The notes under the pieces were generated by a model. That model worked only from the letters and a program-made list of their open reading frames with translations. It ran no database searches and had not been told where the DNA came from. DNA of 64,000 bases from a virus: the IMG/VR virus record IMGVR_UViG_3300032401_001693, positions 1-64,000 of that record; one strand, 5' to 3'. Made by a program: the position numbers and the translations under genes. Shown piece after piece: positions 2,623-7,240 of this stretch (position 1 is its first letter; each line of letters opens with the position of its first letter).

Positions 2623-2653
2623 GAACTTTCTGAGAAAGGCTAAAGGAGGAACT

Positions 2654-3181
2654 ATGAAGCTAATTGAAGCAATGAAAAGTGTTAAGGAACTGAAAAGAAA
2701 GTCTTCTGATCTTAGGGATAAAGTCAAAATGTTCTGCGCTGACTATGAACACGAGAATCCTGCCTATGGTGATAAGCAGAAAGAACAGATCAAATCCTGG
2801 TTAGATTCCCATAGGGATATTGTGAAACAGATTCTTGATCTTAAGCTAAAGATCCAGAAAACCAATATCTCGACTCTAGTTACTATCACTTTAGATGGGA
2901 AAGATGTAGAACAGTCCATATCTGCTTGGATACTGAGGCGTGGGCAAGGAGTAGACCTTTATGGGTTAGCTCACGAAGAGCTTGCTATGTGGAGCCAACT
3001 TACTGATCGTGGTTTGAAAGAAGGCAAAGTGGCATCTTCAACAGGTGTTATAGAGACTAAGATTAGACGCTACTATGATCCTGCTCTCCGAGATAGGATG
3101 AAAGAGTTGTATATTTCGGAACCTCAAATCATTGATGCTACTCTGGAAGTAGTCAACGCTAGGACAGATTTAGTAGAATAA
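2654..3181 (+). CDS. DIP1984/DUF6847-like coiled-coil protein
   Basis: SD AAGGAGG before ATG 2654; MKLIEA start, KIQKTN, SISAWILRR, C-terminal IDATLEVVNART match the family pattern. Confidence 0.55.
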   Translation: MKLIEAMKSVKELKRKSSDLRDKVKMFCADYEHENPAYGDKQKEQIKSWLDSHRDIVKQILDLKLKIQKTNISTLVTITLDGKDVEQSISAWILRRGQGVDLYGLAHEELAMWSQLTDRGLKEGKVASSTGVIETKIRRYYDPALRDRMKELYISEPQIIDATLEVVNARTDLVE

Positions 3182-3199
3182 CTAAAAAAGGAGACTAAA

Positions 3200-3916
3200 A
3201 TGAAAAAATGTGTCGTGATTGTCTTATTTCTGAGTTTGGTTTTTTGTGGAGGAGTGTTTGCTCAAGTGAACCATATTGTGAATACTAATCTAAACACTAA
3301 CACTAATACTAACCTGAACACTAATACTAACCTAAACACGAATTTGAACACTAACACTAACCTGCAGGGTCAGGTTCAAGGCCAAATGCAAGGACAGTTC
3401 CAGGGGCAGGGTCAGGATCAGATGAATAACTGGTCACAAACTTTCGAAACACCCGATAGGATTACTGGAGTTATAGCTCCTAATCAGGTTGCTCCTTCAG
3501 ACTTAAGCTATGGTCAAGGTTCTCAAAGAAACGTAACTAAAGCATCCTGGATGCCGTTATTCGGTGTAGGAACTATTCAGCCTTTGGTTAGTACAGATTG
3601 CGTTGTTGAAGTGATTTGGATTGAATGTGACATAAAGTTTAAAAACCTTTACAAAACAGTACTTGACGGTATCAAGACTGCTACTAGTAAGGTTCCAGCC
3701 GCTGGTCTTAGGTATCAGATCATAGAAGTGGATTCTGCCAAAAGTTGGACTACTGGTGGGAGTATAGCTGGAAATGGTGTTGGTCCTACTGGGAGTGGTG
3801 GATTTGGAGTAGTTGGTGGTTTTGTTCCCAATATGGGAAGGTGGAAACAAAGTAACTTGTATAATATAGTGCTGGTTCAGGTTCAGGAGTTCAAATCCGA
3901 AATTAAGAAGAAATAA
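3200..3916 (+). CDS. exported protein with (NT)n and QG repeats
   Basis: Signal peptide MKKCVVIVLFLSLVFCGGVFA; NTNLNTN and QGQ repeats. Confidence 0.65.
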   Translation: MKKCVVIVLFLSLVFCGGVFAQVNHIVNTNLNTNTNTNLNTNTNLNTNLNTNTNLQGQVQGQMQGQFQGQGQDQMNNWSQTFETPDRITGVIAPNQVAPSDLSYGQGSQRNVTKASWMPLFGVGTIQPLVSTDCVVEVIWIECDIKFKNLYKTVLDGIKTATSKVPAAGLRYQIIEVDSAKSWTTGGSIAGNGVGPTGSGGFGVVGGFVPNMGRWKQSNLYNIVLVQVQEFKSEIKKK

Positions 3917-4096
3917 ATGTGGTATGAGGTTTCAGAACAGGACGAGTTAGAATGGAAGTTGAGTTGGGTGCAATGTCCAATCTGTTGTAACCAGTTCTGT
4001 ATTACAATATTAGGCGAATGCCCTACGTGTGGAGATAGTCGCATTAGCGACACCCATTCTAAGTGTATGGGGAAAACTGGAAAAGAGAAAGCGTAG
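3917..4096 (+). CDS. small zinc-ribbon protein (59 aa)
   Basis: Hand-translated; CPIC...CPTC. Confidence 0.45.
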   Translation: MWYEVSEQDELEWKLSWVQCPICCNQFCITILGECPTCGDSRISDTHSKCMGKTGKEKA

Positions 4097-4356
4097 CCTG
4101 AGACGACAAGAAGGCAATTATAGCATGGGTGAATACCATATTACTTCTCTGTAAGTGGATCGGCTGAAAACCGAGTTGATACTTATAGTGAACCCACTCA
4201 AGGCTGAAGGATTATGATTGAAGTAGGAAAGGCTAAGTCGTCGAAAGGTTTATGGTGCAAGGGTTAAGGATGAGGCTCGAAGCGTAAGCAGAGAGAATGT
4301 CCTGGGGAAAGTTGAGTTTCTTTCTCTCCCACTAGAACTTCCTGGGCTTCCCACAC
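4063..4356 (+). ncRNA. candidate structured ncRNA with periodic AAG(G) repeats
   Basis: No good + strand ORF; several hairpins; about 13 AAG(G)-like units at 4197-4290. Confidence 0.45.
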
Positions 4357-4444
4357 GGGAGGGCAAATGATAGATAAGGAAGATTTGTAATGAAAACAAG
4401 GGTTTAACCTCAATCGCTGCCCTACCGGCATGACGGGGAGAAGG

Positions 4445-4687
4445 ATGAATATGGATCCAAAGAAAATTATAGTAGAAGATATGGAGTTTGAGACTGTAAA
4501 AGAAGAATGGTGTGAGTATATGCTAGAGGATGGCGTAATGATAAAAATTAAACTCATAGCTACTGAAATTAGAAAAGTAGTTGGGGAGTATGACGAACTG
4601 GGCAGGCCAGTTTATCATTTTAAGTTTCAGACTGTAAATAGGATGATTTATCCTAAAGTAAAGAATCCTCAGGATTTAGTGAGTTAG
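4445..4687 (+). CDS. hypothetical protein
   Basis: SD GGGGAG; EEWCEYMLEDG...GRPVY. Confidence 0.6.
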   Translation: MNMDPKKIIVEDMEFETVKEEWCEYMLEDGVMIKIKLIATEIRKVVGEYDELGRPVYHFKFQTVNRMIYPKVKNPQDLVS

Positions 4688-5010
4688 ATGCTATTTAGTT
4701 CAGAAGAGATTTGCCAGAGTTGTATTCATGCCTGGTTTCACGAATGCTGCCAAACATTTTGCTACTGCCTACAAGGGCATGAAGACGATCAGGATGCTGT
4801 AAGTGGTAAATGCCCTTTTCATGTAACTGGTAAAAGAGTGTCTATGGAAGGAGGAAGGTGACTGATCAAATAGTATGAAACCTTTTCTGAATATTGCTTT
4901 AACAGTAGTTTGTATTTTAATCCTGTTTCCTGCCCACCCTTTGTTTTGGTGGGGGTTTGCTGTAATAGGAGCATATGTAGTATCAAAATCGGTAGTCGAT
5001 GGGTTATTCA

Positions 5011-5601
5011 ATGATTGAAGTAATTAAGGATTATGAGGTTGTAGTAGATAATTTTAGGGAGATCGCTACTGCATCTATCGAACGAAAAGGGTTCCATGAT
5101 CTAATGGTCTATTTACAGGGTACTGATTTTTTTACTGCTCCCTGTTCTACTATTTACCATCTAAATGTTGAAGGAGGATTAGTTCTACATTCTTTGAATA
5201 CGCTACTGGTTATGGAACGTTTGGTAGAAACCTATGGTGACTTTGCTTCTAGGTCAAGTCGGGCAATAGTTAGTCTATTCCACGATGTCTGTAAAGCTGA
5301 CTATTATGTCAAAACAATAAAGAATGTCAAAAAAGATGGAAAATGGGGAGAAGATGAAGTCTGGTCTGTTGAGGACAAATTTCCTGTAGGTCACGGTGAG
5401 AAAAGTGTTATTATACTTCAGAGGTTTATGGAGCTATCTTTGGAGGAGATTTTGGCCATTAGATGGCACATGTCAGCATGGGATCCAGCAGTTCATTTTT
5501 CTTACCTTAGTGGCAAATCATTTAATTCAGCTATGGATACCTATAAGTTACTAAAAGCTTTAGTAGTAGCTGATGCTGAGGCTACTTACTTTCTGGAGTA
5601 G
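5011..5601 (+). CDS. HD-domain hydrolase
   Basis: DFFTAPCS..YH..GGLVLHS, HDVCK, GHGEKS, AIRWHM, AD motifs. Confidence 0.85.
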   Translation: MIEVIKDYEVVVDNFREIATASIERKGFHDLMVYLQGTDFFTAPCSTIYHLNVEGGLVLHSLNTLLVMERLVETYGDFASRSSRAIVSLFHDVCKADYYVKTIKNVKKDGKWGEDEVWSVEDKFPVGHGEKSVIILQRFMELSLEEILAIRWHMSAWDPAVHFSYLSGKSFNSAMDTYKLLKALVVADAEATYFLE

Positions 5602-5794: not shown

Positions 5795-7240
5795 TTGGAG
5801 ACCCTTGTTGAAATAGTAGATAAAGACAAGAAGACTGTCCCCTTCATACTAAACCCACCCCAAGTCCGCTACTACAGAAATCGAACCTTCCGAGATATCA
5901 TTTTAAAACCGAGACAATTAGGATTCTCAACGGTTATCATGGGTCTGTTTCTACATGAAACCATGTATGTGCCTAATACCGTATCTGTTATAGTTGCGCA
6001 TACCTCAAATGATTCTGCAGATCTGTTCGATAGAGCCAGATTTATGTATAGTTCGGTTCCAGAAGTATTTAGGCCTTCATACAGGCGCTCCAACAGGAGG
6101 GAGCTATTCTTTGAGAAAATTAACTCAAGGTTTTATATAGGTTCTGCGGAGGCTAAGGATTTTGGATTATCTAAGACTATCAATAATCTACACTGCTCTG
6201 AGGTTAGTGCCTTGGCTTGGAGGCAGGACATGTTAGATGGTCTTTTAGAGGCAGTTCCTAGAAGTGGTCGTGTAGTTTTAGAGTCTACAGCCCGTGGTGA
6301 AGGAGGACCTTTTCACAAGATCTATGTAGGAGCTAAAGAAGAAACTAACGAGTTTAGAACTCACTACTACAGGTGGTATGAGCACAAGGAATACCAAGTG
6401 GCGCTTCATCCAGGTGAGAGAATGTCACTAGACGGAGAAGAACAGGATTTAGTAGATAGAGTGGGTTTATCATTAGCGCAGATTAAATGGAGAAGGGAAA
6501 AAGTATCTAGATTAGGTAAAATGTTTATCCAATGGTATCCTGAACTCGAGGATGAGGATGCTTTTATAAGGTCAGGAAGTCCAGTGTTTGATACTGAATT
6601 TCTAAAACTAAGAGATAAACAGCTATTGGAACAAAATCCTACGGAGATCTGGTTAGGTGGTGATTTGTATATCTATCGGGTAGCAGAGGCGGGTGCTAGA
6701 TATTATATAGGGGTTGATCCATCTGAGGGTGACATAAATTCAGACTATTCAGCCGCTATGGTTGTGCGTGGTTGGCCACTTCCAGTTGAACAGGTAGCAT
6801 TATTACATGGTCGTTGGACACCAGATATACTAAGTGAAAAGGTTTATAGAATAGGAATGGCGTATAATAAGGCTATGTTGGTGGTAGAAAGGAATAACCA
6901 TGGTCATGCGGTTATTCTAAATCTAACTAACGGAATAGTTAGACAGGGTGTAGTAAAATATCCGCCCTATCCTCAGATCTTTGTAGGTCCAGATAGGAAG
7001 TTAGGATTTTTAACTTCTAGTTCTTCCAAACCTCAGATCATCCAAGAGATAGATAGGGAGATGAGAAGTGGCGGACTAATAGTGAATTCTAAGACCTTCA
7101 TATCTGAGGCTAAGAAGTTTCAGTTTCTTAAGCAGGATAGGATGGGAGCAGCGTCTGGTACTCATGATGATGTGGTGATGGCCGCAGCTTTGGCGTTGGC
7201 AGGAGTGGGGTTAGGTGGATTTGATTTTAGCTTCACGTAA
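5795..7240 (+). CDS. terL: terminase large subunit
   Basis: Walker A LKPRQLGFST, Walker B LHCSE, ESTARG coupling motif, RNase H IGVDPSEG, VERNNHG, HDDVVMA. Confidence 0.95.
   Translation: METLVEIVDKDKKTVPFILNPPQVRYYRNRTFRDIILKPRQLGFSTVIMGLFLHETMYVPNTVSVIVAHTSNDSADLFDRARFMYSSVPEVFRPSYRRSNRRELFFEKINSRFYIGSAEAKDFGLSKTINNLHCSEVSALAWRQDMLDGLLEAVPRSGRVVLESTARGEGGPFHKIYVGAKEETNEFRTHYYRWYEHKEYQVALHPGERMSLDGEEQDLVDRVGLSLAQIKWRREKVSRLGKMFIQWYPELEDEDAFIRSGSPVFDTEFLKLRDKQLLEQNPTEIWLGGDLYIYRVAEAGARYYIGVDPSEGDINSDYSAAMVVRGWPLPVEQVALLHGRWTPDILSEKVYRIGMAYNKAMLVVERNNHGHAVILNLTNGIVRQGVVKYPPYPQIFVGPDRKLGFLTSSSSKPQIIQEIDREMRSGGLIVNSKTFISEAKKFQFLKQDRMGAASGTHDDVVMAAALALAGVGLGGFDFSFT

Follow-up and report, generated by a model that had tools for sequence, protein, structure and literature searches.

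A DUF6847-like protein gene and a folded RNA with an AAGG array as a candidate two-part module of phages

The window analysed here covers positions 1 to 64,000 of an IMG/VR virus record of 101.8 kb that is approximately 53% complete. Its + strand holds all of the long open reading frames (ORFs), and the window has a strong G>C skew. Two elements of this strand are the subject of the present study: a gene for a small helical protein distantly related to the DUF6847/DIP1984 family, and a non-coding RNA that lies 838 nucleotides (nt) past the stop codon of that gene and carries a row of AAGG units. A single copy of each is present in the 101.8-kb record. From comparisons of related loci, the real, folded, ~347-nt non-coding RNA and the small helical protein are probably the two components of a previously undescribed protein-RNA particle. 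The features of the locus are presented in Table 1.

Table 1. Features of the locus, in window coordinates, and the related loci that carry a tRNA gene
Feature	Position	Strand	Description and basis
Two tandem AAGG units, the ribosome-binding site of the partner gene	2632-2646	+	AAGG-N3-AAGG at 2636, 7-nt register; candidate autoregulatory site
Partner protein gene	2654-3181	+	175 amino acids (aa); helical bundle and small beta domain; distant DUF6847/DIP1984 member
Inserted gene	3200-3916	+	238 aa; N-terminus like that of a signal peptide or lipoprotein, then long N/T-rich short repeats, then a Q/G-rich run; ORF list and sequence
Doubtful orphan ORF	3917-4096	+	59 aa with two CxxC motifs; shares its last 77 nt with the 5' part of the RNA
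Whole non-coding RNA	4019-4365	+	~347 nt; homology to relative G001, minimum free energy (MFE) fold, no ORF
P0 closing helix, 5' strand	4019-4024	+	Pairs with 4360-4365, 6 base pairs (bp); in MFE fold
P1 hairpin	4030-4079	+	Conserved family loop AGAUA...AAAAC, split by two small hairpins (4038-4051, 4053-4071)
5' H-type pseudoknot	4092-4115	+	S1, 4092-4094 with 4103-4105; S2, 4096-4099 with 4112-4115
Variable region, two hairpins	4116-4196	+	4125-4128/4136-4139 and 4152-4163/4171-4185; MFE fold
AAGG array, ~10-11 units	4197-4275	+	Consensus (G/U)(C/U)AAGG(C/U)U, spacing 7-8 nt; predicted mostly single-stranded
H1 hairpin	4276-4293	+	4276-4278 with 4291-4293, GUAA loop; followed by conserved junction 4294-4300
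H2 long helix	4301-4346	+	4301-4306 with 4341-4346, 4309-4313 with 4336-4340; pyrimidine-rich apex 4314-4335
GGCUUCC motif and H3 hairpin	4345-4359	+	Motif 4345-4351; H3, 4350-4352 with 4357-4359
P0 closing helix, 3' strand	4360-4365	+	Permutation test and MFE fold
HD phosphohydrolase	4999-5601	+	
Large terminase subunit	5795-7240	+	1.4 kb 3' of the RNA element
tRNA-bearing relatives	L134, L135, L137-L147, L151, L153, L156, L158, L160, L162, L163, L170-L172, L176, L177, L181, L183, L184, L188, L191		

Co-inheritance of the protein gene and the RNA

More than 150 homologues of the partner protein were found, and a profile of 41 of them led to 80 viral loci. The 3' domain of the RNA was described by a covariance model, R1, which has the window among its 39 source sequences. 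R1 produced exactly one match, always on the strand of the protein gene, in 79 of the 80 viral loci, while at the 80th (L206) the invariant motif of the RNA can be seen by eye just upstream of the gene. Matches were also obtained in all 11 contigs from metagenome-assembled genomes (MAGs) in which the protein is at least 43% identical. The MAG contigs with the pair were binned with Pirellulaceae, Bryobacteraceae, Dehalococcoidales, Verrucomicrobiota, WOR-3, Saccharibacteria and others. The protein gene precedes the RNA in most loci and follows it in approximately 8 viral and 4 MAG loci. When all ORFs of 99 loci were clustered, the protein was the only conserved gene, the two other large clusters being its antisense shadows; the module therefore has two parts. 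An earlier note on this DNA, made from the sequence alone, had paired the protein with a nearby RNA, and that partnership is strongly supported by the same-strand occurrence in the viral and closer MAG loci and by the lack of any other conserved neighbour. The note had also held that homologues without a nearby RNA, or an absence of covariation, would refute it; both points were examined, and the RNA was found with the homologues and its helices were found to covary. In the window itself, R1 matches positions 4239-4366 over the full length of the model with 92.8 bits (E = 6e-20), a score that is in part given by construction since the window is in the model.

The closest viral relative, the 185.6-kb contig G001, encodes a protein homologue with 67% identity and bears one copy of the RNA in a gap approximately 0.76 kb downstream of that gene. 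The window record and G001 share four ORF pairs at E = 1e-5, of which the DUF6847 gene is the sole strong one and three are weak. Because so few ORFs are shared, this comparison suggests that the cassette moves horizontally between unrelated phages. The two phages carry unrelated genes in the space that separates protein gene and RNA. A split of the partners by unrelated genes in two nearly unrelated phages argues for a two-part module that works in trans rather than for a 3' untranslated region (UTR), and the RNA is taken, on this comparison, to act in trans. Judged by the loci as a whole, the protein gene and the RNA are shown to be co-inherited on the same strand as a two-gene cassette that has no third conserved partner and for which adjacency is dispensable. 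A small gene lies between the partners in both G001 (L002:5774-6013) and a metagenome contig (L235, 1903-2103), and not in the window; insertions at the protein-RNA junction are thus recurrent in this subclade.

Scans of viral contigs with DNA patterns for two conserved blocks returned only G001 together with chance or coding matches. Among cultured phages, blastn and tblastn gave no match to the window RNA, to the RNA of a typical member or to the protein, and phage T5 (AY543070) produced nothing with PF20935, the protein profile (A2) or R1.

Fold of the RNA and its repeat array

The RNA is approximately 75% identical to the non-coding gap of G001, AAGG tract included, in an alignment that begins near window position 4040 and was followed by eye from 4019 onwards. 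The borders of 4063-4356 given in the earlier note were therefore wrong at the 5' end, as the conserved element runs from about 4019 to about 4365 with its two ends paired as helix P0. The claim of a gene-free stretch on the + strand was borne out, since no notable ORF was found in any frame of 4097-4429 with genetic code table 11, table 4 or a code that reads TAG as glutamine. A coding explanation of the repeat region was rejected for the same reason, and because its period is 7-8 nt and not 3. A further stem had been proposed at 4356-4427; the complementarity exists (4360-4365 with 4418-4423) and is missing in relatives.

Over 4019-4365, the MFE is -106.6 kcal/mol (z = -2.21), and the fold includes P0 and the inserted hairpins. 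For the stretch 4097-4429, comparison with shuffled sequences gave z = +0.13 for the + strand and z = -0.98 for the - strand, values that are uninformative because the borders were wrong. Since the fold within these earlier borders was no more stable than shuffles, the case for the RNA rests on sequence comparison and not on energy. No Rfam family matched the whole window at gathering score, and a search of 3800-4700 returned only chance-level matches up to E = 10. In 12 relatives, embedded tRNAs were the only Rfam matches at gathering score. RAGATH-27 (RF03100) gave no match up to E = 10 in window 3800-4700 or in a typical member (L166:4480-4880), and none at gathering score in the 12 relatives.

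The 3' parts of the RNA elements were aligned (alignment A4, 39 sequences), and a structure was written from the visible compensatory changes. With this structure, 82.3% of the cells are paired compared to 72.9% in shuffles, and the covariation score is 0.313 compared to 0.142; neither observed value was reached by any of 500 shuffles. In slide controls, the paired cells fell to 59% or less, a shift of the 3' partners by one column giving 59%. In H2, pairing extends to 91% of cells, both sides have changed in 16-18 sequences at each of three pairs, and none of 500 shuffles reached the observed score. All four pairs of H1 have changed on both sides; its pairing by column is only 55% because of insertions and deletions. 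The GGCUUCC motif is invariant in all 39 aligned members and two C-G pairs of H3 never vary. The frequent G-U pairs in H2 and H3 tie the fold specifically to the RNA of the + strand.

The hairpins proposed in the earlier note may be revisited with this alignment. Both ATGG/CCAT and TAAGT..TCGG/CCGA..ACTTA are present in the MFE fold and in relatives. The third, GGGGAAAG/CTTTCTCT, is not upheld, as the covariation shows 4301-4313 to be paired with 4336-4346. Two tertiary or alternative contacts were also considered and set aside. In one, the P1 loop would kiss the U-rich apical loop of H2; in the other, the 3' strand of H1 would pair with that apical loop. Each is suggestive by eye in some members and neither has clean compensatory changes.

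In the 5' half, the closing helix P0 was examined across 46 members. The mean stem formed by the 5' and 3' ends is 7.85 bp, compared to 5.62 bp when ends are swapped between members, and none of 300 permutations was as high. Six pair combinations occur in the first stem of the pseudoknot, S1, which has all of its pairs formed in 28 of 39 members; the window forms three of three. The second stem, S2, beats shuffles (p ≤ 0.05) in 16 of the 39, and the 4-bp S2 of the window is not significant by itself. Taken together, these comparisons show a fold, consisting of P0, the 5' pseudoknot, H1, H2 and the invariant GGCUUCC motif, that evolution has maintained.

At the P1 hairpin, the window differs from most of its family. 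The family loop, AGAUAAAAAC, is uninterrupted in most relatives, including the subclade member L235, while the window and G001 have a 35-nt insertion in common with differing stem sequences. In the window, the P1 stem would comprise one G-C and two G-U pairs, and the loop motif is interrupted.

The variable region follows the pseudoknot. Both of its hairpins recur in the closest relatives, L002 and L235, with the inner stem of the second differing in sequence in L235. In approximately 29 of 60 relatives, a tRNA gene lies at this position, between the 5' pseudoknot and the array and approximately 90-170 nt past the protein gene, and these embedded tRNAs score 50-72 bits with the Rfam tRNA model. 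Many have unusual anticodons (ATT, AAT, ACT, AGG, TTA, TCA), and in L134 and L198 the T-arm and 3' end seem, by eye, to precede the 5' half of the tRNA. ARAGORN and Rfam identified no tRNA or transfer-messenger RNA (tmRNA) in the window.

Two sequence words near the closing helix were also observed. An 8-nt word that includes the 5' strand of P0, TGCCCTAC (4019-4026), recurs on the same strand at 4418-4425, 53 nt past the 3' end of the RNA. The 3' strand of P0 could pair with either copy, pairing with the second being the further stem of the earlier note; the 64 kb of the window hold only 3 copies, and the second copy is missing in G001. Its presence could reflect an alternative pairing, a scar left by duplication, or chance. 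Just 5' of the closing helix, several diverse members (L166:4515-4535, L169, L141, L133, L150, L204) have a T-rich word, approximately TTGTTCTTTGAAAA, which could be part of a promoter, an extension of P0 or a site for the protein.

The AAG(G) tract that the earlier note placed at 4197-4290 is real. With an indicator for AAG or AGG, the best period in the window is 7.25 nt (z = 9.8), a value as high being found in none of 300 shuffles, and a chain of 13 unit positions can be followed from 4200 to 4286, extending into H1. Across the family, the periodicity is significant at 0.05 in 62 of 72 members with best periods of 7-8 nt. The number of units is narrowly distributed about a median of 11 (55 of 82 members at 10-13, mean spacing 7.5 nt), compared to a median of 3 in random 200-nt segments of the same loci. 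In the unit logo, the second G is present in only 54%, and the units are without a GGAGG core. Where the protein homologues are 26-30% identical, arrays of heptads with an AAG core still follow; the other parts of the RNA differ there and R1 does not recognise them.

The partner protein and its ribosome-binding site

The description of the protein as DIP1984-like, made in the earlier note, is weak for the window protein itself. Against NCBIfam NF038048 (DIP1984_fam), the window protein scores 24.1 bits (E = 3.3e-5), below the cut-off of 70, and it has no Pfam match at E ≤ 0.01. Of the 41 aligned homologues, which are 48-69% identical to the window protein, 38 match Pfam PF20935 (DUF6847). The DUF6847/DIP1984 family is represented by PF20935, NF038048 and the structure 3KDQ; most of the homologues match PF20935, and the window protein, which falls below both curated cut-offs, is a putative distant member. 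Membership in DUF6847 explains nothing in any case, because the family is without known function. Among 14 named control genomes, PF20935 was above its cut-off in Deinococcus radiodurans alone.

An AlphaFold model calculated with the 41-sequence alignment (predicted local distance difference test, pLDDT = 88.8) has three long helices and a small beta domain. Foldseek assigned a notable probability to a single PDB entry, 3KDQ, the crystal structure of DIP1984, and this match was weak (E = 0.32, probability 0.54, template modelling score 0.34-0.39). A profile of the protein's clade searched against PDB sequences identified nothing, 3KDQ included, and a search of the ESM Atlas returned hypothetical viral clusters only. 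In the alignment, Trp, Tyr, Arg and Lys positions are conserved, and these read as positions typical of RNA-binding surfaces. In the library searched, no relevant paper turned up on DIP1984, DUF6847, RAGATH-27 or phage repeat RNAs.

The gene itself begins behind two AAGG units. Tandem AAGG is present upstream of 7 of 55 homologous genes (13%, window included) and of 4 of 506 control ORFs in the same loci (0.8%), an odds ratio of 18 (Fisher P = 1.5e-5). Because of this enrichment at its own ribosome-binding site, the sequence data suggest that the protein recognises the AAGG unit, and by doing so it may limit its own translation.

Proposed mechanism and alternatives

The reading that we favour, though by a modest degree, is that the element is a stand-alone structured RNA of a widespread, uncatalogued phage family which acts with the DUF6847-like protein and offers its AAGG array as a docking rail for multiple copies. 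We infer that the protein binds the array in a manner similar to either TRAP or Csr. In the proposed mechanism, approximately 11 roughly single-stranded AAGG units would form a loop held out by the folded 5' and 3' domains on either side. The array would serve as a ruler-like rail on which many copies of the protein dock, each unit taking about one protomer or a pair of protomers. The two AAGG units at the protein's own ribosome-binding site would be bound as well. The RNA would then either titrate the protein or assemble it, and the particle would restrain its own synthesis. Its candidate roles during infection are control of translation, handling of RNA or tRNA, and counter-defence. The narrow unit count and the tandem units at the ribosome-binding site would fit with multi-copy binding. 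The most complete version of this proposal describes a new class of phage ribonucleoprotein in which about 11 copies of DUF6847 sit on the AAGG rail of a knotted, end-closed RNA, control themselves through the units at the ribosome-binding site, and serve, in phages of many bacterial phyla, an infection function such as translational takeover, handling of tRNA or other RNA, or counter-defence; in this full extent it is plausible and is put forward tentatively, with doubt somewhat outweighing belief.

TRAP is an 11-subunit ring that reads 11 G/UAG triplets of the Bacillus trp leader, one triplet per 5 nt. The earlier note had proposed that the RNA wraps a putative oligomeric ring of the partner protein in the manner of TRAP; the partnership in this proposal is supported, and the protein is unrelated to TRAP. 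Like that leader, the present RNA has about 11 short purine units lined up in single-stranded form with fixed spacing, an arrangement that by analogy suggests one subunit per unit, and a small protein, here a putative RNA binder, is linked by its gene. The differences are considerable. The unit is AAGG every 7-8 nt and not G/UAG triplets 2-3 nt apart, the array lies within a large, folded and closed RNA and not in an mRNA leader, and the partner, as known here from sequence and a model, is a 175-aa helical bundle that has no likeness to the TRAP beta-sandwich and no TRAP Pfam match. The sites of the Csr system are irregularly spaced GGA motifs presented by hairpin loops. As with CsrA/RsmA and CsrB/RsmZ, a non-coding RNA with many copies of a motif that is found at ribosome-binding sites could, by analogy, titrate a translational repressor. 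Unlike the Csr sites, the units are regularly spaced and mostly unpaired; the protein has no CsrA domain, the RNA has no CsrB or Rsm match in Rfam, and the module is phage-borne with conserved pseudoknot and closing-helix domains. GOLLD, ROOL and the stable RNAs of the T4 tRNA cluster are phage-borne structured non-coding RNAs of unknown function, often located beside or around tRNA genes. The present RNA is likewise phage-borne and structured, and tRNA genes are often embedded in its relatives; it is smaller, and it has a repeat array and an obligate protein-gene partner.

Several results weigh against the docking-rail proposal. No recognisable RNA-binding fold was found for the partner protein in Pfam or fold searches, and apart from 3KDQ, Foldseek and VIA-align searches of the model returned only generic helical bundles (Z below 8). 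The tandem at the ribosome-binding site occurs in only 13% of loci, and AAGG overlaps an ordinary Shine-Dalgarno sequence. A single-base Fourier test of the window at a period of exactly 7.0 nt was not significant relative to dinucleotide shuffles (P = 0.1-0.36); the strict test fails because the register slips by 1 nt between units. Four short subclade contigs (L234, L236, L237, L240) have no RNA within 0.8-1.4 kb 3' of the gene, and because of these the linkage can be loose, or the RNA may occasionally be absent. Finally, co-inheritance also fits with a protein that processes or stabilises the RNA, or is regulated by it, without coating the array.

The last point leads to the most serious alternative, in which the array is a sponge for a host factor, binding 30S subunits or a host RNA-binding protein, and the DUF6847 protein only folds, processes or protects the RNA. 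The units do resemble local ribosome-binding sequences and the 5' part of the Shine-Dalgarno sequence, the AAG core is kept even where the protein is only 26-30% identical, and the lack of a known RNA-binding fold in the protein would be expected. However, a single host target would need to be universal, given the many host phyla to which the contigs are assigned; the second G is present in only 54% of units, and the GGAGG core is missing. Strict co-inheritance with one phage protein, together with tandem units at that protein's own ribosome-binding site, favours the phage protein as the reader of the array. We consider the sponge unlikely, while giving it more weight than any other rival. It is followed by a tRNA carrier or processing scaffold, in which RNase P and RNase Z would receive the embedded tRNA from a conserved, closed precursor, the protein would be a processing cofactor, and the window copy would have lost its tRNA. 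The tRNA genes found at one place in nearly half of the relatives, with Rfam scores of 50-72 bits, are what this explanation has in its favour. Yet roughly half of the members, among them the window, G001 and L235, are without a tRNA and keep all other parts, the anticodons are varied and often unusual, and neither the array nor the 3' domain is given a role; the scaffold is thus regarded as improbable.

Two further explanations would do without an independent RNA-protein pair. As a cis element, the sequence would belong to the partner mRNA, for instance as a stabiliser in its 3' UTR, a terminator or an attenuator, and would not be an RNA in its own right. In most loci, at most a few tens of bases separate the stop codon from its start, and a U run comes after H3 in several relatives, but in the window and G001 it is 0.76-0.84 kb away behind unrelated genes, and it is upstream of the gene in approximately 12 loci. 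A terminator is also far less elaborate than this element of ~350 nt, which combines a pseudoknot and a closing helix with single-stranded motifs that are invariant, and this explanation is very improbable. Slightly less credible still is an array of DNA iterons for a replication, partition or packaging protein, comparable to the heptad operators of the omega repressor of pSM19035. Short units at regular spacing would be expected of iterons, and a terminase gene 1.4 kb downstream would suit packaging. The orientation relative to the partner gene is nevertheless fixed in approximately 90 loci, many of the conserved pairs are G-U and would be A-C mismatches on the other strand, compensatory changes keep RNA helices around the array, and neither the terminase nor any other gene is a conserved neighbour. 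Thus the cis element and the iterons are both disfavoured by the split and permuted gene orders, the G-U covariation and the fixed orientation.

With the docking rail as the preferred reading, the module is of interest in several respects. No function has been described for either partner, and none of the 4227 Rfam families matches the RNA. The pair has been kept in phages and phage-like contigs binned with at least 10 bacterial lineages. About 11 units that resemble binding sites within a closed, knotted RNA is an architecture of few systems (TRAP, Csr). If the proposal is true, a mobile two-gene phage cassette would be a new kind of RNA-protein machine in phage biology. The new points of this study are the split arrangement in two unrelated phages, the P1-loop insertion, and corrected borders that overlap ORF 3917-4096. 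The separation of the partners in two otherwise unrelated large phages provides a natural experiment, and as two short fragments the pair would be easy to co-express.

The sequence between the partners in the window contains two ORFs. The inserted gene (3200-3916) has no Pfam or PHROG match, was not found in G001 or other subclade loci, and is not part of the module. The smaller ORF that follows it (3917-4096) had only a sub-threshold match to DUF3797 and, because no homologue was found in a collection of 5.8 billion proteins, it may not be a true gene. Its second CxxC motif is encoded by the conserved 5' strand of the RNA, and the homologous stretch of G001 is non-coding. In one of the module-bearing viral contigs (L190:3306-3661), a tmRNA gene with the tag ANPDLALQAA lies approximately 0.4 kb upstream of the DUF6847 gene.

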